From Planctomycetota bacterium (GTDB lineage: Bacteria; Planctomycetota; PLA2; JAEUHO01): a stretch of 64,000 bases of DNA. Under the pieces are notes generated by a model. The model did no database searches, had not been told where the DNA came from, and saw only the letters and a program-made list of their open reading frames with translations. The stretch lies in the NCBI GenBank assembly GCA_029259775.1, contig JAJDEN010000026.1:60059-124058 (forward strand). Reading direction: 5' to 3'. Position numbers and translations under genes: made by a program. This document shows, one piece after another, positions 9,107-36,475 of this stretch (position 1 is the first letter of the stretch; each line of letters begins with the position of its first letter).

Positions 9107-10984
9107 CTAGCGGACCGTGCGGTAGCGGACGTCGGTGTGGTCCGTGGCGGCGTTTTCCTGGAACCAGACCAGCGTGCCCAGTCCCATGGCGTCGAGATGG
9201 ACCGCGGGCGCCTCGGCAACGTCCCCGGGCGTCGTGTTCAAGAAGTCCACCGACCCGACGAGGCCGTCGGGCGCGATGTGCACGCCGGGCAGCGTGCGCG
9301 CGGCGCCACCCAAGGCGGTGTCCGGCTCGGTCCAGACGACCAGGCCGCCGCCACCGGGACCCGCCGCAACGGCGATGTCGTTGATCGTCTCCGTACCGGT
9401 GATCCTGCGCAGCAGGAGGTTGGGGACGACGGTGCCGTCGCGACGGACGAGGCCCGCCTTGAGCGTGTCCTCGGGATCCGTCGTCGTCTCCGTCCAGGTT
9501 GCGAGGAGTTCGCCACCGGGGGTGAGGGACACCTCCAGGTCGCCGCCGTCGACGCCGACGATCTGGGGCGCCGAGAGCAGGATCGGCTCGATGGCCCCGG
9601 TCGCCGGGACGTAGCGCACAGCGCGGACGTAGCCGACGTCACTGGCGTCCTCCACGAGGGAGTAGACCGCGTAGAACCGGTTGTCGGCCGTCACGTACAT
9701 GCCGTAGTCGCTCAGCTCGCCGCGATCGGCGCTGACCGGAACGGGCGCCTGCCAACCGGGGTTCGGCTCGCCGCTCGGCACGTAGGTGGCCAGGTGGGGG
9801 ACCTCCTCGTAGCTGGTAGGACCGTCGTTCTGCGCCAGCAGTGCGACAGTCGTGCCGTTCGGCGCGACCGCGAGTCCGCGCATCCAGCAGGAGCGGGCGC
9901 TGAAGGTCTCGAGCAGGTGCTGGCTCTGCCAACCCGTGCCTGCCTCGTAGTAGGCGGCGTAGGCGCTGGTCACGCCGGTTGCATCGAGTTGCTGCCAGCT
10001 TACGGCAGCATCGCCGCGGGCGTTGGCGCGCACGAACATCGTCCCCGCGCTGCCCACTTCGTCGTCGAAGTAGGCGTAGTCCTCGAGGACACCGGCGGCG
10101 GTGCGTCGGCGTGCGCCCACGCGGGTGTCGCCCGTGTTCGTGTCCATCTCCTGCCAGCCGAAGAACGCGTTGCCATCGTCGTCGATCGCCACGCGCGGCG
10201 TGCCCATCGTGCGGCCCGACCAGGACTGAAAGAGGCCGACGTTGCTCCAGTCGTCGGTGGCGCGGTCGTAGACCATGTAGTAGCCCAGGTCGCCGTTGCT
10301 GTTCGCGCGCTTCCACGCCCAGACGGCGTCACCGCGCGCATTGACGGCAACGCTCTGCTCACCGAATCTCTCGCCGTTGACCTGCACGAGGGGCTTGCGT
10401 GCCTCGAAGTCCTCGCCGGCGGGCTTGAAGCGCGCGCTGTACTCGGTGTTGCCGGTGCTACGCACCACGCCGTAGAGCGCGATGCCGTTGCCGTTGGGAT
10501 GCGCCTTCACGATGGACGTGACGGCGGTATCCGAGACGGTCTCGAGGTACTTCGCATCCTCGAACGCCGGTGCGCGCGTCTCGAAGCCGAAGGCGAAGGA
10601 CTCGGCGCTGTGGCCGCCCGCGGCCAGCGGAAGGCCAGGCATCAGATCGACCGTGTGCTCGGAGCCAATGGGAAGCCCACTCGTGGGTACGAAGGTGAGG
10701 CGCCGCGTGGCGTCGTTGTAGCTCCACGTGCCCGCGACCGGGCCGCCGGAGGTGCGGACGCCGAGGTGGCTCGCCAGGTCGGCCGCCGGATCGATGTCCA
10801 CGGAGACGTCGATCCGGATCTCTGAGGACTCCATGACGTCTTGGGCGTTGTCCGCCGGGTAGGTCGCGAGGACTTCCAGCGGGGGAACGACGGGCGCCGC
10901 TCCACCGCCGCCTCCGCCGCAGGCGGCGAGGCAGAGGGTGAGCGAGAGGAGGGCGAGCAGGTTGTAGAGGGTGCGGGAGGGCAT
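9107..10984 (-). CDS. Lipoprotein with N-terminal SbsA-type Ig-like (Big_5) domain and repeated beta-propeller-like C-terminal region
   Basis: Internal ATG at 10984 preceded by GGAGAAG RBS. MPSRTLYNLLALLSLTLCLAACGGGGGG lipobox. LEVLATYPADNAQDV...IRIDVSVDID is typical of the SbsA_Ig/Big_5 domain. Repeated G(D/N)A(A/V)xxW motifs. Confidence 0.65.
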   Translation of the reverse strand: MPSRTLYNLLALLSLTLCLAACGGGGGGAAPVVPPLEVLATYPADNAQDVMESSEIRIDVSVDIDPAADLASHLGVRTSGGPVAGTWSYNDATRRLTFVPTSGLPIGSEHTVDLMPGLPLAAGGHSAESFAFGFETRAPAFEDAKYLETVSDTAVTSIVKAHPNGNGIALYGVVRSTGNTEYSARFKPAGEDFEARKPLVQVNGERFGEQSVAVNARGDAVWAWKRANSNGDLGYYMVYDRATDDWSNVGLFQSWSGRTMGTPRVAIDDDGNAFFGWQEMDTNTGDTRVGARRRTAAGVLEDYAYFDDEVGSAGTMFVRANARGDAAVSWQQLDATGVTSAYAAYYEAGTGWQSQHLLETFSARSCWMRGLAVAPNGTTVALLAQNDGPTSYEEVPHLATYVPSGEPNPGWQAPVPVSADRGELSDYGMYVTADNRFYAVYSLVEDASDVGYVRAVRYVPATGAIEPILLSAPQIVGVDGGDLEVSLTPGGELLATWTETTTDPEDTLKAGLVRRDGTVVPNLLLRRITGTETINDIAVAAGPGGGGLVVWTEPDTALGGAARTLPGVHIAPDGLVGSVDFLNTTPGDVAEAPAVHLDAMGLGTLVWFQENAATDHTDVRYRTVR

Positions 10985-11282
10985 CGGTCTTCTCCGAAGG
11001 GGGTGTTGCCCCGTGAACTCCCGAGAAGCTGATCCTGCGGACTGGGAATCGAAGACCGTCGACCGCACGAGGATCACCAAGGGCTCGAAGCTCCCACACG
11101 ACCTGCGGTCGTGGGGGTCCCGTCATCAGCTACGAACGCGAGCGCGCGCTCGCCGGCTCGCACACTGGCTCGTGCGCCCCACACGGTGGCCCCGGATGGC
11201 AGCGGGGTTGAGAAGGACTCGCCAACTCGGGTGCTAGCTCGCACGCGCTCTACGGAGGTCGGGAGTTGGCAGGCCAAAAATG

Positions 11283-11311
11283 GAACGGGCCCCGTCCGTC
11301 AGGACGGGGCC
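11283..11311 (-). terminator. Intrinsic terminator (GGGCCCCGUCC-loop-GGACGGGGCCC followed by a U-run on the minus strand) downstream of the displaced tRNA-Pro 3' end
   Basis: Perfect 11-bp inverted repeat at 11286-11311. Plus-strand AAAAA at 11278-11282 equals a UUUUU tail for a minus-strand transcript. Confidence 0.5.
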
Positions 11312-11317
11312 CGTAAG

Positions 11318-11364
11318 TGGTCGGGGCGAGAAGATTCGAACTTCCGACCTCCTGCTCCCGAAGC
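11318..11364 (-). repeat. 47-bp exact duplicate of the 3' part of tRNA-Pro(CGG) (anticodon stem to CCA): att-type direct repeat
   Basis: 11318-11364 is identical 47/47 to 15348-15394, the 3' portion of the intact tRNA. The sequence 5' of it does not form D-arm or acceptor pairing, so this copy is not a functional tRNA. Confidence 0.7.
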
Positions 11365-15262: not shown

Positions 15263-15347
15263 TCGGGGGCGCGGCTCGTCGAAACGGGGCAATCCGCCCA
15301 CAGACATGGAGAGAGCCCGGAAGGCTGGTACCTCCCGGGCTCTCAAG

Positions 15348-15424
15348 TGGTCGGGGCGAGAAGATTCGAACTTCCGACCTCCTGCTCCCGAAGCAGGCGC
15401 GCTACCAAGCTGCGCTACGCCCCG
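15348..15424 (-). tRNA. tRNA-Pro (anticodon CGG), CCA encoded
   Basis: Reverse complement: CGGGGCG UA GCGCAGCUUGGUAGCGC G CCUGC UUCGGGA GCAGG AGGUC GGAAG UUCGAAU CUUCU CGCCCCG A CCA. 7-bp acceptor stem, D-arm, anticodon loop UUCGGGA (anticodon CGG), T-loop GGTTCGAAT-like, discriminator A. Very similar to E. coli tRNA-Pro(CGG). Confidence 0.85.
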
Positions 15425-17146: not shown

Positions 17147-20002
17147 GTGAGCGAGGAGCAGGTCCGGATCGCTTGTCCCGCATGCGGGAAGCGCTTCAGT
17201 CTGAGCCCCGGCTCCGTCCCCGAGGGGGGGCGCGGCAAGAGCAGCCGCTGCAACGGCTGCGGCACGCCCTTCGTCGTCTTGCGCGAGGCCGGTGAGGTCC
17301 GCGCGGAAGCGGCCCCGGCCGCGAGACCTCCGCCCGCCCCCGCCGCGGAGCCCCCCGCGGCGGCGAGCGCGCCCAAGCGCGCACGCCGGAAGCCGCGCGG
17401 CGAGCGCAAGCCCGCGGCCGACCGGTCGCGCCGGCGCCCGCCCTCGGGTCAGAGCAGCGGCCTCAGCACCACCGGCCCGATCGAGGCACCGCTCCCGCCC
17501 AGCGGCGATACGGGCACACCCTTCGGCATCGGGGACCGCGTCGGGCGCTACGAGATCGAAGGCGTGCTCGCGCGCGGCGGTATGGGCAGCCTCTTCAAGG
17601 CCTACGACCCCGCCGGCAATCGCCACGTCGCGCTCAAGGTGCTCGTGAGCACGGCAACCGAGCTCGACAAGCTGCGCTTCCAGCGCGAGATCCAGGTGCA
17701 GGGCAACGTCCAACACCCGCACATCATGCCCATCTTCGACTCCGGCATGATCGGCCAGACGCGCTACTACACAATGGAACTGCTCAAGGACCCCGTCGAC
17801 CTCGTCGAGCTGACCGAGCTCGCACGTTCGGGCGAAGCGACCAAGGACCCCAAGCTGCGGCCCGTCGGCACGCTCGAGGGCCTCGTGCGCGGCGTGATGG
17901 TGCCCGTTTGCCAGGCCATCCACCACGCCAACGTGAACGAAGGCGTGCTGCACCGCGACCTCAAGCCGGGCAACGTCTTGCTCGATCGAGGCGGCCTCCG
18001 GCCCTTCGTGATCGACTTCGGCGTCGCGGGCATGCTCGACAAGAAGAACGCACGGCTTGCGCATCTCGACACGGAGCTGCCCGTCCCGCTGTCCGGCAAG
18101 GGCGTCAGCATCACCGGCACCCTGGTGTTCATGCCGCCCGAGCAGGCGCGCGGGCAGGCCGATCGCCGCGGCGATGTGTGGGCGCTGGGTTCGATCCTGC
18201 ACTACCTCGTGACGGGCGAGCCGCCGCTGCTTGGCGCCATCCGGCCTGTGGTCTCCAAGCAAGAGCGCATCGACGGTCTGAAGATGCTGATCGAGCAGTC
18301 CCACGCGGAGGGCCGCCACTGGGAAGTGCAGGAGTTCAAGGCGAAGCTCGCCGACATCGAATCGGGACGTGAGCGCACGCTCGAGCAGCTGCGGCACGAC
18401 GTGCTGAAGGGGCGCTACCAGGCCCGCCCGCCCGCCATGCCGCGCGCCCTCGACGCGATCATCAGCAAGGCGATGGCGCCCGATCCCACGAAGCGCTATC
18501 GGCATGCCATGGAGCTGCACGACGACCTGCTCGCATGGCTGGAGGGCCGTACGGTCACGGCGATGGTGCGCAGCTCGGGCGCGGCCGTGGGCACCCTCTA
18601 CCGCAGCAAGGTGTTCCTGCGCCGGCAGAAGGCGATGCTGGCGATCCTCGTAGGCCTCGCGCTGATCACCTACGCCGCGGTGACGTACTGGCCGACGGAT
18701 GCGGGGGTGGATCACGCCGCTCTGGCGCAGGCGAGCATGGACGAGGCGCTGGGCCACGAGCAGGCGGATCGCCGCGGCGCCGCGCGCACGGCCGCACGGG
18801 AGGCCTTGCGGCACGACCCCGAGCGCGGTGACGCCTTCGAGCTCATGGCGCGCTTGGATGCCGCCGAGCTCTTCTGGACGAGCGTGCGCCGCGCGCGCGC
18901 GCTCCGAGACAGAGCGAACGCGGCGTTCGACGCGGGTGACGCTTCGACCGGCATCCGCCGTCAAGCGGCCCTCGCCGAGGTGCTTCAGACCCGTATCCTG
19001 CCCACCCTCGATCCCGCGAAGGAGGAACTGCAGGCGGAGATGGCCCAGCTCATGGAGTTCGCCTCCGGCGTGCAGCCCCTGCGCGCGCCTGGCGCACCGA
19101 CGGGGTCGCACTTCACGATCTTCCCGGTCGAGGGCGCCGCGGGCGTGATCCTCTGGGGCCAGGGCATCGTGCTGCCCGCGACCGAGGCCGGCCTCTCCGA
19201 GAAGGCGCGCGTCATGCCGGGTGCTTGGATCCTGCGCGTGCGCCGTGGGCCTGGCGAGGTGTTCGTACCGTTCGCGGCCGCGCCGGGCGGCGCCGGTGTC
19301 ACCGTGACCTGTCCCTACGATCCGGCCAAGCTCGACGCGCGCTCGGTCTACGTGGGCTCCGGTCCAACGCGCGGTCCGGGACGCCCGCAGGCGTCGGGCG
19401 CGCTGCTCTGGGACCGCACCGAAGTCACGATGGCGGAGTACGCGGGCTTCCTCGCCACGCTCACGCCGGAGGAGCAGCGCCGGCGCGTGCCGCGGCGCGC
19501 GGGATCGCTGGGGGCGCTGGGCGAGCCGCTGTGGGATCGCTCGGGCACGAGCTTCCAGCCGCCCTCGGGCGCGCTGCGGCGTCCCGTCGAGGGCGTCTCG
19601 CTCTACGACGCCAAGGCCTATGCCGCCTACGCGAAGAAGCGCCTGCCGAGTGCCGCCGAGTGGGCGTGGGCCGCGAGCGGGCCCGACGGCCGCGTCTCGG
19701 CGATGGGCGGGCTACGCGACCTGCTGGCCGGCGGCGCGCATGTCGACCGCCCGCTGGCCGGCGCGACGGACATCCGCTCCGTCGAGGGCGATCGGAGTCC
19801 CTTTGGCGTCTACGACATGGCCGGAAACGTGGCGGAGTTCACGTCGACGCTGGGGACGCTCCGCGGGGAGAACGGGTGGTTCGTGATGGGCGGCTCCTAC
19901 CTCGGCCCGCCTGCGGATGCGCTCGTGCAGGACGCCCGTCTGGTCGCTGGGTGGATGCCACGGCAGGGCGTCGGCATCCGCTGTGTCCGCGAGGCGCGCT
20001 AG
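17147..20002 (+). CDS. Ser/Thr protein kinase with N-terminal zinc-ribbon and C-terminal FGE-sulfatase (SUMF1/formylglycine-generating-enzyme-like) domain
   Basis: GTG start at 17147 with GGGAGG RBS 6 nt upstream. CPACGKRF...CNGCGTPF zinc ribbon. Hanks kinase motifs: GRYEIEGVLARGGMGSLFKA, ALKVL, HRDLKPGNVLL, DFGVA, PPEQ. Single TM (AILVGLALITYAAV). FGE-domain motifs: LLWDRTEVTMAEYAGFL, LPSAAEWAWAASG, GVYDMAGNVAEFT. Confidence 0.85.
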   Translation: MSEEQVRIACPACGKRFSLSPGSVPEGGRGKSSRCNGCGTPFVVLREAGEVRAEAAPAARPPPAPAAEPPAAASAPKRARRKPRGERKPAADRSRRRPPSGQSSGLSTTGPIEAPLPPSGDTGTPFGIGDRVGRYEIEGVLARGGMGSLFKAYDPAGNRHVALKVLVSTATELDKLRFQREIQVQGNVQHPHIMPIFDSGMIGQTRYYTMELLKDPVDLVELTELARSGEATKDPKLRPVGTLEGLVRGVMVPVCQAIHHANVNEGVLHRDLKPGNVLLDRGGLRPFVIDFGVAGMLDKKNARLAHLDTELPVPLSGKGVSITGTLVFMPPEQARGQADRRGDVWALGSILHYLVTGEPPLLGAIRPVVSKQERIDGLKMLIEQSHAEGRHWEVQEFKAKLADIESGRERTLEQLRHDVLKGRYQARPPAMPRALDAIISKAMAPDPTKRYRHAMELHDDLLAWLEGRTVTAMVRSSGAAVGTLYRSKVFLRRQKAMLAILVGLALITYAAVTYWPTDAGVDHAALAQASMDEALGHEQADRRGAARTAAREALRHDPERGDAFELMARLDAAELFWTSVRRARALRDRANAAFDAGDASTGIRRQAALAEVLQTRILPTLDPAKEELQAEMAQLMEFASGVQPLRAPGAPTGSHFTIFPVEGAAGVILWGQGIVLPATEAGLSEKARVMPGAWILRVRRGPGEVFVPFAAAPGGAGVTVTCPYDPAKLDARSVYVGSGPTRGPGRPQASGALLWDRTEVTMAEYAGFLATLTPEEQRRRVPRRAGSLGALGEPLWDRSGTSFQPPSGALRRPVEGVSLYDAKAYAAYAKKRLPSAAEWAWAASGPDGRVSAMGGLRDLLAGGAHVDRPLAGATDIRSVEGDRSPFGVYDMAGNVAEFTSTLGTLRGENGWFVMGGSYLGPPADALVQDARLVAGWMPRQGVGIRCVREAR

Positions 20003-20196
20003 CGCGCCTCGCGGCGTTCGGCCGTCGTCAGCACCCGCGTAGGGGCGAGGTGGATTGGAAGGAGGGGCTCGCAGCCCCTCCTTGCCGGAGCGGCGGACGC
20101 GGCAGAGCCGCGCGCCGCGACGAACAGGCCGCGCGGGAGCGCGGAACGCCAACCAGCTGCCTGCCTGCGGGATCGCGCGTCACGTGGCGGGGCCTT

Positions 20197-20256
20197 GTGT
20201 CCGTGTCCGTGTCCGAGTCCGTGTCCGTGTCCGTGTCCGTGTCCGTGTCCGTGTGC
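20197..20256. repeat. (GTGTCC)n hexanucleotide microsatellite, ~10 units with 2 variant units
   Basis: Read directly: gtgtcc gtgtcc gtgtcc gagtcc gtgtcc x5 gtgtgc. Confidence 0.9.
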
Positions 20257-20345
20257 GTGAGAGGTAGTGAGAGGTCGTGCTCGTGTTGCTCGTGCAAGTG
20301 TGGGTGCGCTAGGGGGCGTGGGAGGTGGGCTGGGAGTGGGCGTGC
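20257..20345. repeat. GT-rich ~90-bp intergenic element, copy 1 (second copy at 28948-29043)
   Basis: gtgagaggtagtgagaggtcgtgctcgtgttgctcgtgcaagtgtgggtgcgctagggggcgtgggaggtgggctgggagtgggcgtg aligns at ~85% with 28948-29043. Both copies sit between convergent genes. Confidence 0.6.
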
Positions 20346-20381
20346 AAAAAGGCGCGAGGCCGGGATTGCTCCCGGCCTCGC
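20345..20381 (-). terminator. Rho-independent terminator for the minus-strand HEAT-protein gene
   Basis: GCGAGGCCGGG-agcaat-CCCGGCCTCGC hairpin, followed on the minus strand by a UUUUU run (plus-strand AAAAA at 20346-20350). It lies 25 bp after the stop at 20409. Confidence 0.6.
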
Positions 20382-20408
20382 AAGGGTTCCGAACAGAACG
20401 GGCGCGAC

Positions 20409-22469
20409 CTAGAGGATGCTGAGCACCTCGTTGATCATGTCGCCCGAAGCGCGGTAGTTGATGTCCCGGCCGATCATCGACAAGGACGGCGTCCAGGCGA
20501 GGTCGCCCACGATGCCCAGACCCGCGCACGCCAGCGCACGCGTCAAGTCCTGCTCACGGACGTTCTTCAGAAGCTTGATGAGTGGAGCCACAGCGCGCTC
20601 GTCACCGACCTTCGCCAACGCCACGACAACCTGGCCCTTCGCGCTCTGGCTGCGGGCACGCAGGAGCTCTTCCTGAAGCACCTTCACCGCCTCGCGGTCG
20701 CTCAGCATGCCGAGCGCCGACGCCGTCGCACGACGCAGCTTCTCCGAGCGACGCTCGCGAAGCGCCTTGCGGATCGCGACGAGGACCCTCTTCTGGTTGT
20801 TGCCGATGTGGCCCAGTCCGATGGCCGCGTAGCCGCGCAGCTCGTCATCCTCGCGCGAGTCGTTCACGATCTCGATCAGATCGCTCATGCTCGTCGAGTC
20901 CCGGGCGAGGCCCAGCGACACCGCGAACGCGGCACGGGAACGAGCCGCGTTCTTCTTGGTCCGCAAGCCGTTGCGCAGCACCTCGCGTGCGCGCGCCTGG
21001 TACTCGCCGTAGAGCCGTACCGTGGTCTCCTCTCCGATCGCGCGGCAGGCTACGCCCAGCGCGAGCGCGCCGTAGGGACGCGAGCCGAACGAACCACTCT
21101 CCGTCACCTTGATGAGCCAGTCACCGATCTTGCTGCCGCCGAGCACGTCCGTTTCCTCCGCCTTCACATCAGCGGCGATCAGGTAGGCGACGCTCATCAC
21201 GGCGAAGTTGCGCGCCGTCAGGTCGCGGATCTTCTTCGAGTCCACACCCTGCTGCAACTCCTTGGCGAGTTCCAGGCGCGTGGCCGAGGTGCAACGCGCA
21301 CCGAGCTTGCCCACGGCGATTGCCGCGGAGCGCAGTACGTTCAGGCTCGTGCGACGCGACGACAGCACGCGGCGGAGCACGTGCAGGTCCACGTCCTTGT
21401 CACCCACACGCCCGAGGGCCTGGGCGGCGTAGCTCGCCACGTAGGCGGGCACCTTCTGCTTGCAGAGGGTCCCCTTGGTGACGCACGTACGCAGGATGCT
21501 GAAGTGCTCGGGCGTGATGGTGTCGCGGTGCTGGAGGCTGACCGCGTTGAGGAGCGCCACCGGGAGGTCCGGGTGCTCGTAGTTGGCCTGCATCAGCTCG
21601 AACAGACGCGCCGTCGTCGCGACCGCGTGGCTCGCCGTGCCGGTGCCCGAGGGCTGATCACCGAGCATGCCGATCGACAGCGCCGCGAAACCGCGCTCGC
21701 GGGCGCGAAGCTTGTCGTTCGAGAACATGTCGAAGAGGACCTCGCGCACCTTGTCGAGGCTCGCGCCGTCGAACTGGTCGTCGGTGACCTCGCGGCGGAG
21801 GAGACCCAGGGCCAGCGCGGCGGACTCACGTGTGATGCCGTCCTTGCTGTTCAAGCCCTTGGTGAGCAGCTCGATGTGCACGGGGTTGTCCGTGATCTTG
21901 GCCAACGCGATGTAGGCGGCGGACTCGGTGTCCTGGTGCTTGGCGTTCGCGGGATTCATCGTCCACAGCAAGGCCGGGATGATGTGCGAGTTGACCGCGG
22001 CGCGGATCGCGTGCCGGCTGGCGTTGCGCGCGCCGGCGTTGGACTTCGAGAGGGTACCGAAGATGTGGTTCGAGCCCTGGAACTTGTAGATGCCGCGCTT
22101 GACCTGCTGCAGCACGTCCTTGTTGTACTCGTACCAGAACATCCAGCTGTCGGCTGTGATGCTGGAGTTGCGCGTCGGGCGCTTCGTGTCCCCGCCCCTG
22201 AAGGGGTCGGTCGCCGGCGCCGGGGGCTGGCCGCCGTCGGGCGTGACCGGTGTCGGGGTCTTGCCGGGCCTGCCATCGGGCGTCGTCGGTGTCGTGGGCT
22301 GACCGGTCGGCGGCGGGGGGCTCGGGGGCGTGGGGTCGAGGGGTTCCTTCAGGCCCGGCGGCAGTGCGCCTCCGGGGCCGCGGTATTGACCGCCATGCGC
22401 GAAGGCCTCGGTCGCTCCGATCGGGAGCGCGAGCGCCGCGAACAGCATCCACATCGTTGTCTTACGCAT
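20409..22469 (-). CDS. Secreted HEAT-repeat protein with Pro/Thr-rich linker (paralog of 22896-24962)
   Basis: Signal peptide MRKTTMWMLFAALALPIGATEAFA. AHGGQYRGPGG, then PTPPSPPPPTGQPTTPTTP linker. Many HEAT-like units (RxxAAxALGxxG...). C-terminal ...INEVLSIL. Confidence 0.75.
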   Translation of the reverse strand: MRKTTMWMLFAALALPIGATEAFAHGGQYRGPGGALPPGLKEPLDPTPPSPPPPTGQPTTPTTPDGRPGKTPTPVTPDGGQPPAPATDPFRGGDTKRPTRNSSITADSWMFWYEYNKDVLQQVKRGIYKFQGSNHIFGTLSKSNAGARNASRHAIRAAVNSHIIPALLWTMNPANAKHQDTESAAYIALAKITDNPVHIELLTKGLNSKDGITRESAALALGLLRREVTDDQFDGASLDKVREVLFDMFSNDKLRARERGFAALSIGMLGDQPSGTGTASHAVATTARLFELMQANYEHPDLPVALLNAVSLQHRDTITPEHFSILRTCVTKGTLCKQKVPAYVASYAAQALGRVGDKDVDLHVLRRVLSSRRTSLNVLRSAAIAVGKLGARCTSATRLELAKELQQGVDSKKIRDLTARNFAVMSVAYLIAADVKAEETDVLGGSKIGDWLIKVTESGSFGSRPYGALALGVACRAIGEETTVRLYGEYQARAREVLRNGLRTKKNAARSRAAFAVSLGLARDSTSMSDLIEIVNDSREDDELRGYAAIGLGHIGNNQKRVLVAIRKALRERRSEKLRRATASALGMLSDREAVKVLQEELLRARSQSAKGQVVVALAKVGDERAVAPLIKLLKNVREQDLTRALACAGLGIVGDLAWTPSLSMIGRDINYRASGDMINEVLSIL

Positions 22470-22826: not shown

Positions 22827-22855
22827 CTGATGAAGCGTGAGGCGTGAAGCGCTCT

Positions 22856-22907
22856 GCGAGATATCTCAGCTAGATATCTCTGCTAGATGTCTCTGCTAGA
22901 TAAGCGA
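22856..22907. repeat. Tandem 13-bp repeat GCTAGATRTCTCT (~3.5 units) overlapping the stop codon of the HEAT paralog
   Basis: gagatatctca gctagatatctct gctagatgtctct gctagataagcga read directly. The TAG stop of the minus-strand gene lies within the last unit. Confidence 0.7.
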
Positions 22908-24962
22908 GAGGACCTCGTTGATCGCGTCGGTCGACGCGCGGTAGTTCACGTCCAAGCTGATGCGCGAGAGCGAGGGCAGCCACTCGAGGTCGCCGATGAC
23001 GCCGAGGCCGGCGCAGGCGAGAGCACGAGTGAGGTCCTGCTCCTTGGTGCTCTTGAGCAGAGCGACGAGGGGATCTACCGCGCGAGCATCGCCAATCTTG
23101 GCGAGCGCGAGGACGACCTGGCCCTTGACGTTCTGGCTCTTGGCACGCTTCAGCTCATCGAGAAGGAGCTTCACACCATCCTTGTCCTGCAAGAGGCCAA
23201 GGGCGGTCGCGGTCTGCTGACGCAACTCCTCCGAGCGACGCTCCTTGAGCGCTTCGCGGATGGGGTTGAGCACGTCACGCGTAGCCTGGCCGATGAGGCC
23301 AAGGGCGAGCGCGGCGTAACCACGGAACTCCGTGTCTTCCTTCTTGTTGCCGATGATCTTGACGAGCGCCTTGACCGAGGACATGTCCTTGATGATGCCC
23401 AGCGATGTCGCGAACGCGGCACGGCCGCGCTTGTCGAGCTTCTTCGAGTGAAGACCGTTGCGCAGCACCTCGAGGGACTTCGAGCGGAACTCGCCGTAGA
23501 CGGGAACCGTAGTCTCGTCTGTGATGGCGGCGCCGACCAGGCCGAGCGCGAGCGCACCGAAGGGGCGCTGGATGTACTTGCCATCCTCAGCCATATCGAG
23601 CAGGAACTCACGCACCTTCGTGCCACCGACGACGTCGGTCTTGCCCTGCTTGACGTCAGCGATGATGAGATCGCTGAGGCTGATGATCGCGAAGTTCTTC
23701 GTGCTCGGGTCCTTGAGCTTGCTCATGGAGTCGAGCAAGGTCTTGGCGACGGCGACACGGTCCTCACCACTGACGAGACGACCGAGCTGACCCAGGCCGA
23801 TGGCGCAGGAGCGACGGACGTTCTTGTCCTTGATACGGCGGTTCGTCAGCGCGCGCTGCATGACCATGAGGTCCTTGGCAGTGCCGATACGACCCAACGT
23901 GAGGGCGGCGTACCCCTGGTGCAGCGACTGGACGTCGAGGCGACCGAAGCGGCCCTTCGTGACACAGTTGCGCAGGAGGTCGCGCTGACCGTCCGTGATC
24001 GACGGGGGCGGCTGCAGGCCGATGGCCATGAGCAGCGAGATCATCAGGTCCGGGTGACCGTACTTCGCCTTGGCAAGCGTGAAGAGGCGCTCGGTCGTGG
24101 CAGCGTGGCCCGAGTAGGAGCCGGAGCCGCTGGGCTGGTCGCCCAGGAGACCGATGGCCATCGCGGCGAACGCTCGCGTACGGGCCTGGTACTTGTCGTC
24201 TGCGTCCTCGAAGATACCGAAGAGGAAGTCACGAACCTTGTCGAGCTCGCCAGCATCGAACTGCTGGCTCGGCTCGGCGCGACGCAGCATGCCGAGACCG
24301 ATCGCAGCCGACTCCTGCACGATGAGGTCGTGCTTGAGCTTCGGGTCGAGACCCTTCTGGATCAGCTCGATCTGAGCGGGGTCCTTCGCCATCTTGGCGA
24401 GCGCGATGTACGAAGCGGACTCGGTATCCTGGTGCTTCGAGTTCTTCGGGTCCATGGCCCACAGGAGGGCGGGGACGACCGTGGTCTCGACCTTCGCGCG
24501 AATGTCGTGCGTCGCGTCGGAGCGGTTCGAGCGGTTCTTGCCGCCGATCTGGAATAGCGGGTTCTCCGAGGAGACGCGCGTGTAAAGCGCCTTCTTCAGG
24601 TTCTCGATGTCCGCCTTGTTGCTGTGGTACCAGAACACCCAGTTCTCGAAGCCGAGGGAGCCGCGGGCGCCCTTCGTCTTCTCACCCATGCCGGGCGTCG
24701 TGGGCGACGGAGCCGGCGTGGTCGGCATCGGCGTCGACGGCGTCGGTGCACTCGGGGGACCGTCCGGCGTCGTCGGAGGCGGCGTCACCGGAGGGCCCGA
24801 GGGGGGCGGGGGGCTGGGGGGCGTGGGATCGGTGGGCTCGCGCTGGCCGGGCGGAACTGCGCCGCCGGGGCCGCGGTACTGACCACCATGCGCCCACAGG
24901 TCGCCGGCGAAGATCATCAGCGCCACGGAAACCGCCAGGGTCCCGAATACGATTCGCTTCAT
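22896..24962 (-). CDS. Secreted HEAT-repeat protein with Pro/Thr/Ser-rich linker (tandem paralog of 20409-22469)
   Basis: MKRIVFGTLAVSVALMIFAGDLWA signal. Same AHGGQYRGPGG box and PTPPSPPPPSGPP linker. Roughly 45-50% identical (by eye) to its neighbour across the full length. C-terminal ...INEVLSLI. Confidence 0.75.
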   Translation of the reverse strand: MKRIVFGTLAVSVALMIFAGDLWAHGGQYRGPGGAVPPGQREPTDPTPPSPPPPSGPPVTPPPTTPDGPPSAPTPSTPMPTTPAPSPTTPGMGEKTKGARGSLGFENWVFWYHSNKADIENLKKALYTRVSSENPLFQIGGKNRSNRSDATHDIRAKVETTVVPALLWAMDPKNSKHQDTESASYIALAKMAKDPAQIELIQKGLDPKLKHDLIVQESAAIGLGMLRRAEPSQQFDAGELDKVRDFLFGIFEDADDKYQARTRAFAAMAIGLLGDQPSGSGSYSGHAATTERLFTLAKAKYGHPDLMISLLMAIGLQPPPSITDGQRDLLRNCVTKGRFGRLDVQSLHQGYAALTLGRIGTAKDLMVMQRALTNRRIKDKNVRRSCAIGLGQLGRLVSGEDRVAVAKTLLDSMSKLKDPSTKNFAIISLSDLIIADVKQGKTDVVGGTKVREFLLDMAEDGKYIQRPFGALALGLVGAAITDETTVPVYGEFRSKSLEVLRNGLHSKKLDKRGRAAFATSLGIIKDMSSVKALVKIIGNKKEDTEFRGYAALALGLIGQATRDVLNPIREALKERRSEELRQQTATALGLLQDKDGVKLLLDELKRAKSQNVKGQVVLALAKIGDARAVDPLVALLKSTKEQDLTRALACAGLGVIGDLEWLPSLSRISLDVNYRASTDAINEVLSLI

Positions 24963-25350: not shown

Positions 25351-27336
25351 ATGCACATCGCCCCGCAGACCCCCGACGGCCGCATCACGGCCGTGCGCCC
25401 CGCCCCCGGGGGAGCGCTGGGGATCGACATCGCCTTCCCCGTCGATCCGGCCTTCCGGGCCCTGGTCACCGGTCGCGAGGCCGAGGTGATCTTCGCGGCT
25501 CGCAGCCGGATCGCCCGCCTGGGGATCGATGTGACACCCTCGGGGCCCATGACCTGGGACGGCGACCGGCTGTGCCTCGCCGCCACGGTGACGTGCAACG
25601 TCCCCGCCTACGGCGTCGAGCCCTTCCTCGAGCGCGTCCTGCTGCCGGGGATCCGCATCGGCCGCCTCGTCTTCTGCCCGGCCGAGCGCCGGCTGGGCTC
25701 GGACGAGATCGACGAGGCCGTGCGGGACAACCTGCTGCAGTTGCCCGCGGCGTACTCGATCGACTACGAAGGCCGCTTCCGCATCCGGCCTGAAGGCTGG
25801 GTCTACGACCTGTCGGAGCCGATGTCGCTGGCGTCGCTCACCACGATCCTCACGCGCGCGGACGGGAAGGACCTGCTGAACCGCATCCAGACACGCCGTG
25901 CGGTCGACCGCATCGTGCTCGAGCCCGGCAAGGGCGTGATCACGTCCTGTTCGATGTTCTTGCACAAGCACTACGTCGTGCTCGAGAGCGAAGACACCTC
26001 GCTTGGCCATCATCTGGAAGCCGTGTGCATGGACCCGATCAGCACGCGCGGCACGAACATCTTCCTCGAGTTCGCCAACCGCAGCGACCGCCGCATCGTG
26101 AACCCGACTGTTGCCGCGGCGCTCTACCACGCGGTGCCGGAGGACCTGGAGCCGCGACGATGGTACGGCTCGGTCGACCTCCAGCCCGCCGCTCCGGATC
26201 CCGTGTCCGAGGCGACCGCCGAGTACGAGCGGCTCGCGCCGGTGTTCGATCGCCTCGAGGTCGCGAGCGAGGACGAGCACTACGCCCACCGCATGATCGC
26301 CGTCGTCACCGACCTGCCGGCCCTTCTCGATGGAGGTGCCCCCGACCTGCTCTGGCGTCGACCGAGCGACGGCTGCGAGCCGACCGAAGGGGAGGACCTC
26401 TCCGCGGAGCAGATCCGCCATCGCGTGATCACCAACGCAGTCGACGCCTCGTACGGCACGTGCGTGCTCAACGACGTGCCTGCCGGAGCGGGCATCACCC
26501 TGCTGCTTGGCTACTTCCCGAACCTGATCGAGCACACCCAGATTTGCCAAGCTGCGCTCGAGCGCAAGATCGCGCGCATCATCTTCCGCCGTGCCTCGTT
26601 CGAGCACGGGAGCTTCTTCTCCGCGCGCGATCACGGTCGGCTCGCCGACTACGAGACCCTTGGCATGGAAGTGTTCTGGTGCCATGACGAGCGGCGGCAC
26701 GTGGTGAGGCACGTCTTTCGCGGCCTGCGCGGCTACTTCATGGAGCCGCACACGGTCGATCGCTTCAAGTCGGCACTCATCTTCGCGGCGTACGGCTCGG
26801 CGCGTCCCCTCGGCGACGACGAGGTCGCCAAGGTCTCGCGCTTGCTCGAGAACCTCCAGGCGTTCTTCGGCAGCGACATCGCGATCATGACGGGCGGTGG
26901 TCCCGGCGCGATGCAGCAGGCCACGGACATCGCGCAGGGCATGGGCATGCTGGTTGGCGCGAGCTTCATCGAGACCGTCGACCAACAGACCAACCAGACC
27001 GCCGAGTTCTATCAGACCTTCCAAGGCCGCAGCCGTCAGGCGCGCCAGCGCTGGTTCGAGGTGGCCGCCTTCCACTGGTTCTTCATGGGCGGTGTCGGCA
27101 CGCTCGAGGAGGTCGGCCTCACGCTGACCGACATGAAGCTGGGCGTCATCGAGCGCTCGCCGCTCGTGTTCTTCGGTCGCCACGACGGCCAGACGTACTG
27201 GGACAGCCTCCAGCGCCAATTCGCGACGATGGTCGAGGTTGGCCGCGCCCCGGCCTGGCTCACGGAAAACGTCCTCGTCACCGACGATCCCGATGAGGTG
27301 CCTCGGTTCTACAAGCGCATCCTCGAGCTCGGTTGA
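25351..27336 (+). CDS. Large (661 aa) protein with C-terminal LOG-family (TIGR00730/lysine-decarboxylase-like, PpnN/SLOG-type Rossmann) domain; N-terminal ~440 aa uncharacterised
   Basis: C-terminal motifs IAIMTGGGPGAMQQATDIAQGMG (GGGxGxM) and FMGGVGTLEEVGLTLTD (PGGxGTxEE) match LOG-family signatures. GGAGAG RBS before ATG 25351. The longer antisense ORF 24682-27351 has no motifs. Confidence 0.75.
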   Translation: MHIAPQTPDGRITAVRPAPGGALGIDIAFPVDPAFRALVTGREAEVIFAARSRIARLGIDVTPSGPMTWDGDRLCLAATVTCNVPAYGVEPFLERVLLPGIRIGRLVFCPAERRLGSDEIDEAVRDNLLQLPAAYSIDYEGRFRIRPEGWVYDLSEPMSLASLTTILTRADGKDLLNRIQTRRAVDRIVLEPGKGVITSCSMFLHKHYVVLESEDTSLGHHLEAVCMDPISTRGTNIFLEFANRSDRRIVNPTVAAALYHAVPEDLEPRRWYGSVDLQPAAPDPVSEATAEYERLAPVFDRLEVASEDEHYAHRMIAVVTDLPALLDGGAPDLLWRRPSDGCEPTEGEDLSAEQIRHRVITNAVDASYGTCVLNDVPAGAGITLLLGYFPNLIEHTQICQAALERKIARIIFRRASFEHGSFFSARDHGRLADYETLGMEVFWCHDERRHVVRHVFRGLRGYFMEPHTVDRFKSALIFAAYGSARPLGDDEVAKVSRLLENLQAFFGSDIAIMTGGGPGAMQQATDIAQGMGMLVGASFIETVDQQTNQTAEFYQTFQGRSRQARQRWFEVAAFHWFFMGGVGTLEEVGLTLTDMKLGVIERSPLVFFGRHDGQTYWDSLQRQFATMVEVGRAPAWLTENVLVTDDPDEVPRFYKRILELG

Positions 27337-27535
27337 GGCCGACGATGCCATCGCGAATCCGGGCCCCGGCTCGGCGTCGCGTCCTCAACGTGCAGGAAGC
27401 ACGCCTGCGGCGCGACGCCTCGCCGTGACGCCGGCTCGCTTCGGCCTCCTCGGCCTCAACAGCCAACCGACGATGCCATCGCAGTGCGGCCGACGATGCC
27501 ATCGCGATTCCGGGCCCCGGCTCGCTTCGGCCTCC
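27333..27535. repeat. Tandem direct repeats (CGACGATGCCATCGCG x3; GATTCCGGGCCCCGGCTCGCTTCGGCCTC x2) upstream of the NHL lipoprotein gene
   Basis: ggccgacgatgccatcgcgaatccgggccccggctcg at 27333-27369 is repeated as ggccgacgatgccatcgcgattccgggccccggctcgcttcggcctc at 27488-27534. A third cgacgatgccatcgc lies at 27467-27481. Confidence 0.55.
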
Positions 27536-27652
27536 CGGAATGGTGGAGCCAGGAGAGGCTCGGATGCAGGGCTGGCCGAGTTGGACGACTCGGGCGTTGG
27601 CGTCGATATGGGCTTCGGGCTACCGTCTTGCATGCGGTGGTGGAGGCCCTGG

Positions 27653-28879
27653 ATGCGAGCGAGAACGTGGACGGCTGCTGCCCTGCTGTGCGTCTTCGCC
27701 TGCGGTGCGTGCCTCGCGGCCTGCGGCGGAGCAGGCGGGGGCCCGCCGTCGGTCGACACCTCGTTCGTGGACCTCTCGACGTTCAGCCCGGCCGCGCTCG
27801 TCCTCGGGCAGCCCATCTTCGCGCTGGGCGACGCCAACCAGGGTCAGCTCGTCCCCGGCCCCAGCACGATGGCGCGGCCCGGCATGCCGGCCGTCGGGCC
27901 GTTCTACCTGCCCGACATCAGCAACCACCGCGTGCTCGGCTACAACCAGCCGCCGGTCTTCAGCAACATCGCCGCCAACTTCGCCCTGGGCCAGCCGGGT
28001 CTCGCCTTCAACATCCAGGGGGTGGGGCCGACGGCGCTCAGACGCCCGACGTGCGCCGCCGTCTCCGGCGGCCGCCTCTTCGTCAGCGACAGCGGCAACC
28101 ACCGCGTGCTCATCTGGCGCACGCTCCCGGACCGCAACGCCGCACCGGCCGACATCGCGCTCGGCCAGCCCGACCTCGTGACGGCAGGGGTCGGTGCGGG
28201 CGCGGCCGACATGCAGGAGCCGGCCGGTCTGTGCGTTGCCGGGGACAAGCTGCTCGTGTGCGATCGCCTCAACCACCGCGTGCTGATCTGGACGACCGCA
28301 CCCAGCGCCAGCGGCGCGCCGGCCGATCTCGTGCTCGGGCAGGCGGACTTCGACGTCAACCTGCGCAATGCGGGTGGGCGCGCCGGCGCCTCGACCTTGG
28401 CCGATCCGACGTCGGTATGGACCGACGGCGCGCGCGTCCTCGTGGCCGACCGCGGCAACCACCGCGTGCTCGTGTGGACGAGCTTCCCGACGCAGAGCGG
28501 GCAGCCGGCGGATCTGGTGCTGGGCCAGCAGTCCTTCGACCGCGCAGCACCCGGGGTGGGGCCGACGCGCTTGTTCTTGCCGAGCGACGTCACGTCCAAC
28601 GGCCGGCAGGTCTTCGTGGCCGATGCCGGCAACCACCGCGTGCTGGCATGGCACGAGTTCCCCGAAGTGGATGGGGCGCCTGCGCGCGCCGTCCTGGGGC
28701 AGGCGACCTTCGAGCACAGCGTCCCCAACGACGAAGACCAGGACGGCACACCGGACGCCGGGCCGGGGCCACGCACGTTCCGGAGCGTGGACGCGATGCT
28801 CACCGTGAGGGTGTTCGAGAACCTGCTCTACGTCGGTGATACCGGCAACCACCGCCTGCTCGTCTTCCGCGGAGAGTAG
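27653..28879 (+). CDS. NHL-repeat (six-bladed beta-propeller) lipoprotein
   Basis: MRARTWTAAALLCVFACGACLAACGG lipobox (alternative ATG 27632). Six repeats of (S/D)xGNHRVLxW...LGQ. The 546-aa ORF-track version has an unlikely N-terminal extension across the tandem repeats. Confidence 0.75.
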   Translation: MRARTWTAAALLCVFACGACLAACGGAGGGPPSVDTSFVDLSTFSPAALVLGQPIFALGDANQGQLVPGPSTMARPGMPAVGPFYLPDISNHRVLGYNQPPVFSNIAANFALGQPGLAFNIQGVGPTALRRPTCAAVSGGRLFVSDSGNHRVLIWRTLPDRNAAPADIALGQPDLVTAGVGAGAADMQEPAGLCVAGDKLLVCDRLNHRVLIWTTAPSASGAPADLVLGQADFDVNLRNAGGRAGASTLADPTSVWTDGARVLVADRGNHRVLVWTSFPTQSGQPADLVLGQQSFDRAAPGVGPTRLFLPSDVTSNGRQVFVADAGNHRVLAWHEFPEVDGAPARAVLGQATFEHSVPNDEDQDGTPDAGPGPRTFRSVDAMLTVRVFENLLYVGDTGNHRLLVFRGE

Positions 28880-28947
28880 TTCGCCCTAGCCCATCCCCAG
28901 CCGCCGCCCCTGACGCACGCAGGTGCGAGGTTGTGCGAGGTGCCAGG

Positions 28948-29043
28948 TGAGAGGTGGTGAGAGGTGGTGCGAGGTCGTGCTCGTGTGTCTCGTGCGAGTG
29001 TGCGTGCGCTCGTGGGTGTGGGAGTTGGGGTGGGTGTGAGAGG
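28948..29043. repeat. GT-rich ~90-bp intergenic element, copy 2
   Basis: gtgagaggtggtgagaggtggtgcgaggtcgtgctcgtgtgtctcgtgcgagtgtgcgtgcgctcgtgggtgtgggagttggggtgggtgtgagagg lies between the NHL gene (stop 28879) and the convergent histidine kinase (stop 29055). Confidence 0.6.
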
Positions 29044-29054
29044 GCTCAGAGCAC

Positions 29055-29873
29055 CTACCCCGGCACGGTCGCCGGGATGTCGAAGCGGATCGTCGTCCCC
29101 GCCGGTGACGTGATCACGCGGATCACGCCGCCCAACCTGCGTATCGTCTGACGCACGAGGAAGAGCCCCAGGCCGTTGCCGCCCTTCGCGGCGCGACCCG
29201 TCACGAACGGGCGCCAGAGGCGCGGCCTCAGGTACTCGGGGATGCCCAAACCATCGTCCTGCACCTCGACGCGGCACGTGCTGCCGTCCACGATGGACGC
29301 GCGCATGGCGACGTTGCCGGGTCCGCCATCGCACGCCGTGACCGCGTTCGTACCGAGGTTCACAAGCGCTTGGACGAGCAAACGTTGTTCGCCCATGAGT
29401 ACGGCGTCCTGCTCGACCTGATGGACCAGCGAGATGTCCTCACTCGCTGCGAGCGGACGCACGAGGCGCGCTGCCTCGCGCAACACCTCCGACACGCGGA
29501 AGGACTCGAGCTCGGACTCTTCCTGACGGCCTGCGAATGCGAGCACGGTCCGGATCGTCTCGGAGATCTCCTCGCACCGCGAGGGGACCTCCTTCAGCGC
29601 GTCGCGCCAGACCGTCGGATCGCTGCTGCGCGACGCCATGTAGGCGTCGCCGCTGATGAGCATCGAGTAGTTGGCGACCTCGTGCACGAGGCCAGCCGTG
29701 ATGAGCCCGGTGTGGGCGAGGCGCTGCTGCTGCGCGAGCATGACGAGCAGGCGCTCACGCTCCTTGCGCCAGGCGGCTCGCTCGAGCTCGATGTCCGAGA
29801 GCGCGTCGCGGGGGCCGGTCTGTGCCGCGCCACCGCCGCTCGGACCCATGTTGTTCAGGAAGGGCTGGGTCAT
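29055..29873 (-). CDS. Cytoplasmic sensor histidine kinase (HisKA + HATPase_c; no TM segment)
   Basis: Start at ATG 29873 (MTQPFLNNMG...), overlapping the upstream stop by ATGA. H-box LITAGLVHEVANYSM. G-boxes QALVNLGTNAV, DDGLGIP, GGNGLGLFLVRQ. The 356-aa ORF-track version adds an Arg-rich spurious extension. Confidence 0.8.
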   Translation of the reverse strand: MTQPFLNNMGPSGGGAAQTGPRDALSDIELERAAWRKERERLLVMLAQQQRLAHTGLITAGLVHEVANYSMLISGDAYMASRSSDPTVWRDALKEVPSRCEEISETIRTVLAFAGRQEESELESFRVSEVLREAARLVRPLAASEDISLVHQVEQDAVLMGEQRLLVQALVNLGTNAVTACDGGPGNVAMRASIVDGSTCRVEVQDDGLGIPEYLRPRLWRPFVTGRAAKGGNGLGLFLVRQTIRRLGGVIRVITSPAGTTIRFDIPATVPG

Positions 29874-30235
29874 CGGGTGCCCCCTTCGTTGGGTACGCTG
29901 CAGACGAGCGCGAGAGGACCGGAGCCGACGTGCAAGGTCTGCGCGCCGTCGACGTGCAGCGCACTGACGGAGAACTGGCCGAAGGCGTCGGTCTCGACGG
30001 GGTCCGCGTCGCCGCCCAGCCGCACGGTCGCGCCCGGGACGCCGCGTTCGCACGCCTCCTCGATCACCTGGCCGTGGGCCACCTGCAGGCCGCCGGAGGG
30101 CGGCAGCACGAGCATGTCGACGCACAGGCCATCCGCGCGGAACAGCAGGCTGCGCTCCGCCGCCGCAACCGAGCGGAAGCCCGGTAGGGCGCCGACGCGC
30201 GCCGAATCAAACACGAGCTTGGCTTGAAGCGACAT
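29870..30235 (-). CDS. Small (121 aa) CarbopepD_reg-like/transthyretin-like beta-sandwich protein
   Basis: ...VRLGGDADPVETDAFGQFSVSAL... matches the VxTDxxGxFxL motif of carboxypeptidase-regulatory-like domains. The stop overlaps the HK start (ATGA). Start at 30235 overlaps the upstream gene by 29 nt. Confidence 0.55.
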   Translation of the reverse strand: MSLQAKLVFDSARVGALPGFRSVAAAERSLLFRADGLCVDMLVLPPSGGLQVAHGQVIEEACERGVPGATVRLGGDADPVETDAFGQFSVSALHVDGAQTLHVGSGPLALVCSVPNEGGTR

Positions 30236-35014: not shown

Positions 35015-36217
35015 ATGCGCACCCTCACATTGATCTTCGCTCTCCTCTTCGCGGTCGGCTGCGGCTCCAGCATCGGGGCCCTCCTCAGCAACCAGGTACT
35101 GCTCTTCGCGACGTTCCAACCCATGACGTATCAGCTCGGCCAGCCGAGCTTCACGTCGGGCACCGCGAACCAAGGCAACGCGAATCCGTCCGCGACGTCG
35201 CTTCGGTTCCCGGGCGCGGGCATGGCAGGCGGTACCAACTTCTACGTACCCGACGCGGGCAACAACCGCGTGCTGGGCTACACGAGCGTGCCCAATGTCT
35301 CGATGCGGGCCGCCGACTTCCCGATCGGTCAGGCCACCCTCGCCACCGCCGCGACGGGGACGTCCTCGGGCGCGATGAACAACCCCCTCGCCCTATGGGC
35401 CACGAGCTCGCACCTGTTCGTGAGCGACACGGGCAACAACCGCGTCCTCATCTTCGCGGGTGCGCCCGTGAGCTCGGGCTCGACGGCCAGCTTCGTGCTG
35501 GGCCAGACGGGCTTCGGGCTGAACGGCACGGGTGGGACCGCCACGACGATGGACAGCCCGGTCGGGATCTGCAGCGCGAACGGCAAGCTGCTCGTCTGCG
35601 ATCGCGACAACAACCGCGTGCTGATCTGGAACTCGATCCCGAGCGCCAACGGCGTGGCGGCGGACCTCGTCTTGGGGCAGGCGAATCTCTCGAGTGTGCT
35701 GCCCAACCGTGGGGCTACCCCCGCGGCGAACACGCTGAACTGGCCGTGGGGCGTCTGGACCGACGGCACGATCGTGGCGGTCGCCGACGCGGCAAACCAT
35801 CGCGTGCTGATCTGGAACTCGTTCCCCACGACGAACGGCCAGCCGGCGGACGTGGTGTTGGGTCAAGCCGGCTTCACGACGTCAGGGGCCGGTCTCACGG
35901 CGACGTCCTTCAACGTGCCGACGGACGTGACGTCGAACGGGATCCAGCTCTTCGTGGGCGACTGCGAGAACAACCGCGTCCTCCTCTGGGACACGTTCCC
36001 GACCGTCAACCAGGCCGCGCCGAACAAGGTGCTTGGTCAGGGTGACTTCACGCACGGCCGCCAGAATGACGACGACCAGAACACGGTGGACGACGGGCAG
36101 CCCTCGCAGCGGACGCTCAACAGCGCAGGTGGCTTCCTGTTCGTCCGTCTGGACCAGAGCAATCTGTTCGTCGGCGACCACCGCAACCACCGCGTGGGCA
36201 TCTGGCGCGGCAACTGA
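35015..36217 (+). CDS. NHL-repeat beta-propeller lipoprotein (paralog of 27653-28879)
   Basis: MRTLTLIFALLFAVGCGSS lipobox. Repeated DxGNNRVLIW...LGQ blades. Divergent from the CHAT gene. Confidence 0.75.
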   Translation: MRTLTLIFALLFAVGCGSSIGALLSNQVLLFATFQPMTYQLGQPSFTSGTANQGNANPSATSLRFPGAGMAGGTNFYVPDAGNNRVLGYTSVPNVSMRAADFPIGQATLATAATGTSSGAMNNPLALWATSSHLFVSDTGNNRVLIFAGAPVSSGSTASFVLGQTGFGLNGTGGTATTMDSPVGICSANGKLLVCDRDNNRVLIWNSIPSANGVAADLVLGQANLSSVLPNRGATPAANTLNWPWGVWTDGTIVAVADAANHRVLIWNSFPTTNGQPADVVLGQAGFTTSGAGLTATSFNVPTDVTSNGIQLFVGDCENNRVLLWDTFPTVNQAAPNKVLGQGDFTHGRQNDDDQNTVDDGQPSQRTLNSAGGFLFVRLDQSNLFVGDHRNHRVGIWRGN

Positions 36218-36227
36218 GCCGCTGACT

Positions 36228-36475
36228 CTTCAAGAAGAGAAGAAGACCAACCACAGAGGCACAGAGGACACGGAGGGCCGCAGGCGACCATGCGCGGTGT
36301 TTCACGTGCGCTCGTCGTTGGCTCTCAAGAAGCAAGGAACCGCAGAGGCGCAGAGGGCCAACCCGTCGCTCGGGGGCCGCGCACGAGGCTTCTGCTCCTC
36401 AGACTCAGCCGATCGCACTTCGAGCGCCAAGCCTGATCAGAGGCACACCTCTGTGTCCTCTGCGCCTCTGTGGTT
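36228..36475. mobile_element. MITE-like element: ~40-bp terminal inverted repeats flanking a ~170-bp non-coding core
   Basis: Left end caagaagagaagaagaccaaccacagaggcacagaggacac (36231-36270) is the near-perfect reverse complement of the right end gtgtcctctgcgcctctgtggttcaattctcttctcttgg (36447-36486 region). It lies between the convergent NHL and typA genes. No ORF. Confidence 0.45.

Follow-up and report, generated by a model that had tools for sequence, protein, structure and literature searches.

Two copies of a GT-rich sequence of 89 nt lie in spacers between convergent genes in the stretch of DNA analysed here (64,000 nucleotides, referred to below as the window). The two are homologous and non-coding, lack structure, share this kind of location, and are absent from the relatives and the sequence collections that were searched. 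We favour, with moderate confidence, the interpretation that they are lineage-specific repeat DNA that was born by slippage, was duplicated once, and is tolerated where convergent genes leave a dead zone between them, and that they are not a dedicated genetic device. We infer both the slippage-and-copy origin and the neutrality of the element, the latter from an absence of signals.

A repeat search aligned positions 20257-20345 of the window (copy 1) with positions 28957-29045 (copy 2) over 89 nt without a gap and with 83% identity. The 74/89 ungapped matches and the E value of 4e-20 obtained when copy 1 was compared with copy 2 by blastn rule out a chance or low-complexity likeness, with the biased composition allowed for. 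A nhmmer profile built from both copies matched the two copies and their identical images in public read-set assemblies (E 2e-20 to 3e-21), and a 23-nt core pattern had two matches in the window, again the two copies, against 0.00 expected in shuffles. The longest exact run common to both is 16 nt. Nowhere else in the 64 kb does the G+T content reach 75% over 80 nt: on the plus strand, copy 1 contains 47 G, 20 T, 12 C, and 10 A, with GTGAGAGGTN as its first two units, and copy 2 contains 47 G, 23 T, 12 C, and 7 A. Both have the same orientation, with the G-rich strand on the plus strand. The copy 1 core is base-for-base identical in the Logan assemblies SRR15505515, SRR15505518, and SRR15505519, and the copy 2 core is identical in SRR15505516 down to position 28959, where that contig ends. 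Since the cores are reproduced in Logan assemblies of four sequencing runs, an assembly artefact is excluded. The first-pass annotation of this DNA, which had described a GT-rich element in two homologous intergenic copies, was therefore correct on this point. It also placed copy 1 correctly; its start for copy 2, 28948, was off by one 10-mer unit, because the left edge of that copy is a tandem GTGMGAGGTN array whose register is ambiguous.

The gene map and Pfam assignments confirmed the annotated placement of both copies between convergent gene pairs. Copy 1 lies in a 406-nt spacer between a plus-strand gene for a Ser/Thr protein kinase with an FGE-sulfatase domain (17147-20002; Pfam Pkinase 1.4e-27, FGE-sulfatase 5.7e-21) and a minus-strand gene for a HEAT-repeat protein (20409-22469; HEAT_2 2.4e-21). 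Copy 2 fills a 175-nt spacer between a plus-strand gene for an NHL-repeat protein (27239-28879, start codon uncertain; NHL 4.3e-26) and a minus-strand gene for a HATPase_c histidine-kinase-like protein (29055-30125, start uncertain, 272 aa in the public gene call on L136; HATPase_c 8.7e-19), and its core ends about 10 nt from the stop codon of the latter. The statement that the element follows right after the stop of a plus-strand gene holds for copy 2 but not for copy 1, whose core begins 255 nt past the kinase stop. The G+C content of the window is 65-73%.

The surroundings of the two copies contain several structured sequences. An intrinsic terminator of the HEAT gene (20353-20382, minus strand), with a 13-bp stem and a 4-nt loop followed by CCTTTTTGCA (T5), is located outside the repeat, between the HEAT stop codon and copy 1, and the relative L133 has a hairpin at the equivalent position. 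A GC-rich hairpin without a T run, GGAAGGAGGGGCTCGCAGCCCCTCCTTGCC (20058-20087, plus strand), lies 56 nt past the kinase stop and appears in the computed fold. These two structures bracket the copy 1 core together with the microsatellite described below, and little transcription may reach the stretch between them. At copy 2, a C-rich left flank (28883-28912, plus strand; C 22 and G 8 in 40 nt) is able to base-pair with the right part of the core, which is G-rich, and the whole spacer folds with -81.9 kcal/mol (z -2.2). In the next spacer beyond the HEAT gene, between the tandem HEAT paralogues at 20409-22469 and 22896-24962 (both on the minus strand), we observed an AT-rich 13-mer tandem, (CTCTGCTAGATAT)x3.9, at 22852-22902; so AT-rich a tract stands out in a genome of 69% GC and may indicate a promoter region.

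Tandem repeats form the edges of the element and pervade its interior. A GTGTCC hexanucleotide microsatellite adjoins the left edge of copy 1 (20197-20259, plus strand), as had been noticed at first reading; TRF assigned to it a period of 6, 10.5 units, 94% matches, and a score of 112, with one GAGTCC variant unit. No hexamer array is present at copy 2. The left part of copy 2 overlaps a tandem GTGMGAGGTN 10-mer array of about five units (28920-28980, plus strand), which TRF reported as 28923-28980 (5.4 copies) and 28946-28979 (3.4 copies, 91% matches). Units of the 10-mer GTGAGAGGTN thus occur at both left edges, 2.3 in copy 1 and up to 5.4 in copy 2, and TRF found periods of 6, 10, and 12 within both copies. 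The trinucleotide GTG occurs 22 times in 152 nt at copy 1 and 21 times in 129 nt at copy 2, compared with 0.0175 per nt in the window, which is about nine times the window density; its spacings are mainly 6 and 10 nt. The tract reads as decayed tandem-repeat DNA whose edges are still slipping. All three Logan contigs of copy 1 stop inside the GTGTCC array, at the k-mer limit, and the contig from the other side (L134) ends at 20064, in the hairpin after the kinase gene; the end of the copy 2 contig at 28959 (L136) falls in the 10-mer array. No 31-mer is repeated within the window at positions 28959 and 20064, and these two ends may stem from variation in unit number within the population or simply from low coverage.

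The microsatellite had been suggested to be phase-variable in length. The array starts 195 nt past the kinase stop and lies beyond the HEAT gene terminator, and hence downstream of both genes; it is part of no promoter and of no reading frame. A change in its length would therefore have nothing of this kind to switch, and phase variation is unlikely.

Searches with blastn (word size 7) and the nhmmer profile found no third copy in the 64-kb window, in 7.5 kb of additional source DNA to its left (L130), or in the loci of the relatives; the copy count covers about 71 kb of the source genome. An exact-pattern scan of 185,579 species genomes with GAGGTCGTGCTCGTGTNNCTC returned 39 matches, all unrelated and without GT-rich flanks. 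These matches are unrelated coding sequence, and many of them represent one conserved stretch common to Gaiellaceae and related actinobacterial MAGs. A scan of JGI metagenomes with an exact double 10-mer pattern returned 85 matches, all of them unrelated GTGAGAGGTN-type minisatellites from many sources and none with the core. Both scans required exact matches and were run on collections from which the source genome is absent (evidently so for the species genomes). Viral contigs, plasmids, and phages gave no match to the element. In the Logan k-mer contigs recovered for both copies, the cores are not interrupted; hence near-identical copies do not exist elsewhere, and the element has not spread recently. 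The copy count that had been proposed as a check accordingly stands at two in about 71 kb of source DNA, with the element absent from four relatives. Of the intergenic repeat family that had been postulated, the homologous, non-coding intergenic repeat is upheld; the term family is not, since two copies are all that was found in the 71 kb, the relatives, and the collections searched.

The homologues of the HEAT protein are labelled Planctomycetota MAGs by NCBI, and four relatives with 63-69% amino acid identity (L133, L004, L132, and L005) were used for comparison; the comparison set thus comprises the two copies and relatives of which the nearest has 69% amino acid identity. The order of the HEAT and kinase genes is kept in L004, L005, and L133, those three of the relatives in which the contig extends to the neighbouring gene. 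By blastn and nhmmer, the GT-rich element is absent from the spacer downstream of the HEAT gene in all four relatives, and this spacer has a different state in each of them. In L133 it measures 57 nt and holds one hairpin. In L004 it measures 636 nt and contains three tandem GTAG-tagged palindromic units beginning GTAGGGGC. The L132 spacer contains at least three tandem GTAG-tagged palindromic units of a kind related to the GTAGGGGC units of L004, and the 369-nt spacer of L005 contains two copies of another palindromic repeat. We also considered whether the two GT-rich copies could be the att sites that delimit an island from 20.2 to 29.0 kb. This candidate was rejected on the grounds that the genes between the copies keep their order in relatives; Pfam searches covering most of these genes found no integrase domain.

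Repeats of other kinds, namely REP-like hairpins and an element with inverted repeats, occupy further spacers between convergent genes of the window. The REP-like hairpins are found at 53079-53099, 53135-53155, and 62052-62072, and also at 53176-53200 and 53231-53251. The sequence GTAGGGGCGACCCTTGTGGTCGCCCG occurs three times in the window, the third copy without the GTAG tag, compared with 0.01 expected for the 21-nt hairpin core, and another hairpin, GGGCGGGGACAAGC(C/G)CCGCCCC, is present in two copies. The GTAG at the start of the window hairpins fits the GTAG-tagged REP superfamily (PMC3733652). GTGTCC recurs beside REP-like units, as GCGTGTCCGTATCGGTGTCCGCC at 62086-62110 of the window and as CCCTACGTGTCCCTACGTGTCCCTACG at 4760-4790 of L004, which may hint at the source of the hexamer unit or may be a coincidence. 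The inverted-repeat element, of about 260 bp (36230-36490), is bounded by inverted repeats of 40 nt (CAAGAAGAGAAGAAGACCAACCACAGAGGCACAGAGGACAC / GTGTCCTCTGCGCCTCTGTGGTTCAATTCTCTTCTCTTG), contains part of the left arm once more in its interior, and looks MITE-like; it lies between a second NHL paralogue (35015-36217, plus strand) and a TypA/BipA GTPase gene (36521-38536, minus strand).

Three other kinds of repeats were observed in the window. A 58-nt duplication with 95% identity (11307-11364 and 15337-15394), 4 kb apart, overlaps the 3' part of a tRNA-Pro(cgg) gene (15348-15424, minus strand) and brackets a segment of lower GC content (65%) with three 63-nt repeats (at 11424, 13363, and 15194). 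The 58-nt pair looks like attL/attR of an integrated island; in the ORFs that were tested, Pfam found AHSA1 and SnoaL domains only and no integrase. A 162-nt direct repeat, 98% identical, is present at 59853-60014 and 60071-60232, spaced 218 nt. Tandem repeats of 15 nt (five codons), with at least five copies each, occur at 48795-48876 and 49388-49503 in a predicted plus-strand gene (47830-49680), where they are a repetitive protein segment.

The history that we favour for the GT-rich element would begin with an ancestral degenerate, GTG-punctuated tract composed of hexamer GTGNNN units, 10-mer GTGAGAGGTN units, and G-runs, which would have grown through replication slippage. Ectopic recombination or repair would then have placed a single copy of an 89-nt stretch of it in another spacer, at a distance of 8.7 kb, after which the copies would have drifted to 83% identity. 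The tandem edges presumably slipped independently, giving rise to (GTGTCC)10 at copy 1 and to five 10-mers at copy 2 versus two at copy 1. Both copies would persist because they are located in a transcriptional dead zone between convergent gene ends, and in the relatives the same spacer would have been filled independently with other repeats. The shared orientation, the same kind of site, and the confinement of changes in the G-quadruplex motif to its loops are weak hints of constraint (by chance, the loop pattern would be seen with a probability of about 0.06 and the orientation with one of 0.5). A multi-copy family with consistent orientation would weaken the view that the element is a passenger.

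If the tract has any activity, the most plausible one would be polar loading of Rho. The RNA predicted from the minus strand of the core has a C content of 53%, a G content of 13%, and 21-23 YC dimers, and its folding energy reaches only -6.4 and -9.6 kcal/mol for the 89 nt. The maximum minus-strand C/G ratio over 78 nt is 4.05 and 3.61 in the two copies, while the median of the window is 1.0 and its 99.9th percentile 3.24. No other non-coding site in the window has a ratio of at least 3, and the two copies rank highest among 36 gene ends, the other 34 all having values of at most 2.2. A third C-rich tract (10922-11010) was set aside as the coding sequence of a lipoprotein signal peptide. C-rich, G-poor RNA is the compositional hallmark used by rut predictors (PMC6144790, PMC6407284), and the element offers about 70-80 nt of RNA with C>G and little secondary structure. 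The copy 2 core is located about 10 nt past the HATPase_c stop, and copy 1 behind the hairpin-plus-T5 intrinsic terminator. Given this rut-like composition, minus-strand read-through could load Rho at the element, which would help stop antisense read-through. We consider such a polar effect possible but doubtful: an intrinsic terminator precedes copy 1, and the tract is present at only 2 of the 36 gene ends of the window and therefore is not this genome's general way to end genes.

A more demanding version of this idea holds that the element is a selected Rho-dependent terminator module, in which a minus-strand rut would end the HATPase_c transcript, back up a leaky HEAT terminator, and shield the convergent plus-strand genes. 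The C content, YC dimers, extreme C/G ratios, and weak folding listed above, their agreement with the published rut predictors, and the start of the copy 2 core so close to the stop codon would all be expected of such a module. However, a rut requires a composition and not a sequence, which leaves the 83% identity between the copies unexplained. The canonical terminator ahead of copy 1, the lack of such a tract at the other 34 gene ends, and the lack of the element at the orthologous site in relatives also argue against it, and we regard a selected module as unlikely. The original suggestion of a bidirectional terminator did not survive. The element has no hairpin; a terminator scan reported nothing inside the element or in the spacer of copy 2, and the single terminator adjoining copy 1 (20382-20353, minus strand) is the actual intrinsic terminator of the HEAT gene.

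The plus strand offers a different possibility. Its G-runs had been proposed to be able to form G-quadruplexes, and canonical motifs (at least four G3+ runs with loops of 1-7 nt) are indeed predicted at 20302-20340 in copy 1 and 29014-29044 in copy 2. They represent two of the three non-coding plus-strand G-quadruplex motifs of the window. Each includes a 21-nt short-loop motif, GGGCGTGGGAGGTGGGCTGGG in copy 1 (20314-20334, plus strand) and GGGTGTGGGAGTTGGGGTGGG in copy 2 (29014-29034, plus strand), and the pattern GGGYGTGGGAGKTGGGSTGGG has no match outside the two copies; where the 21-nt motifs differ, at three positions, the change always lies in a loop. On this basis the conserved GGGNGTGGGAGNTGGGNTGGG, in the 3' UTR of kinase and NHL transcripts or in displaced non-template DNA, might act as a G-quadruplex or R-loop element that stalls polymerase or blocks 3' exonucleases. 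The plus strand of the core is 53% G, in line with this idea, yet 38% of composition-preserving shuffles of either core also hold a G-quadruplex motif, which suggests that the motif is largely a by-product of G-richness. In addition, the loop-only pattern of differences is compatible with chance at the probability given above, plus-strand transcripts may not reach the element, given the hairpin 56 nt past the kinase stop, and the motif is not conserved in relatives. We therefore judge a G-quadruplex or R-loop function to be improbable.

We hold it to be just as improbable that the element is a non-autonomous mobile element of the REP or MITE kind that was spread by a transposase and has more copies elsewhere in the genome. 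Its dispersed, intergenic, lineage-specific occurrence between convergent genes resembles that of REPs (PMC3733652), and REP-like palindromes do occupy such spacers in the same genome and in relatives. On the other hand, the core contains no inverted repeat, in particular no imperfect palindrome of 20-40 bp as is characteristic of REPs, and its edges carry no GTAG or CGTC tag. Alignment of both loci with their flanks revealed neither the terminal inverted repeats nor the target-site duplication of a MITE. The edges are tandem arrays and not defined termini, the longest shared exact run is short and the contigs are unbroken in the cores, which speaks against recent transposition, and two copies are all that about 71 kb contain.

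We attach little credence to a broader hypothesis that would join the activities of the two strands. It posits an undescribed class of non-palindromic, strand-asymmetric intergenic elements of uncultured high-GC Planctomycetota-like bacteria, which would lie in one orientation between convergent genes and serve as polar insulators, loading Rho on one strand and providing a G-quadruplex/R-loop roadblock or mRNA 3'-end protector on the other.

A gene for a small RNA or for a small Cys-rich or His-rich protein is highly improbable and largely refuted. The skewed composition leaves all six frames largely open, and one plus-strand frame reads RSCSC.SC.C.CARG in both copies. However, the GC3 of the frames open in both copies is 0.62-0.66 versus 0.85-0.95 in genes, most differences between the copies would be non-synonymous, and the upstream 10-mer units break the reading frame. 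We rejected the coding reading on these three grounds, and public gene calls on the fetched contigs placed no ORF over either copy, even at contig edges; the element is non-coding. As for the small RNA that had been among the functions first suggested, Rfam at the gathering threshold reported only the tRNA in the window and no family match for the element, permissive Rfam scans of both spacers gave chance-level matches only, the folds of the core on both strands of both copies were not significant (z 0.62, 0.15, -0.11, and -1.88), and no promoter-like site was found at either copy.

Passenger DNA thus remains the most likely reading of the element, which would then be of local importance only and would mark convergent spacers as landing pads in this lineage; the element also causes assembly breaks. 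If many copies were present in the same orientation at gene ends, it would represent a sequence-defined, strand-polar termination or insulation element. To our knowledge, transcription termination in the phylum is essentially unstudied.

The element shares features with four known systems. Like rut sites, it would give rise to a minus-strand RNA of 80-90 nt that is C-rich, G-poor, YC-rich, and unstructured, directly past a stop codon in the case of copy 2. Unlike it, known rut sites are not sequence-conserved repeats; moreover, copy 1 is positioned behind an intrinsic terminator and such tracts are not general at the gene ends of this genome. REP/BIME sequences are short, non-coding, and lineage-specific and occupy spacers after gene ends, often between convergent genes (PMC3733652), all of which applies to the element; members of the REP superfamily carry a GTAG or CGTC tag at one end, and the GTAG-tagged REPs are mobilised by RAYT transposases (PMC3733652). 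The spacer of the relatives holds GTAG-tagged palindromes, the window itself has such hairpins elsewhere (53079, 53135, and 62052), and the proposed block of 3' exonucleases by a G-quadruplex would be akin to the action of REP stem-loops. In contrast to REPs, the element is non-palindromic, has no stem-loop, GTAG tag, or defined ends, is strand-asymmetric (at least 75% G+T), and is represented by two diverged copies.

The microsatellite invites comparison with phase-variable SSR contingency loci. It is a long, near-perfect hexanucleotide array of 10.5 units that is expected to slip in length; unlike those loci, it lies downstream of both neighbouring genes, where a change in length has no obvious target to switch. 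The remaining parallel is with G-rich minisatellites and R-loop-prone G-rich repeats, such as those of the immunoglobulin switch-region type. Compared with these, the element is very short (about 90-150 nt) and bacterial, and any R-loop formation or recombination in it would be hypothetical. Like them, it is composed of degenerate short tandem units, is G-rich on one strand, and contains G-quadruplex motifs, and the metagenome scan showed that unrelated minisatellites of the GTGAGAGGTN type are numerous.
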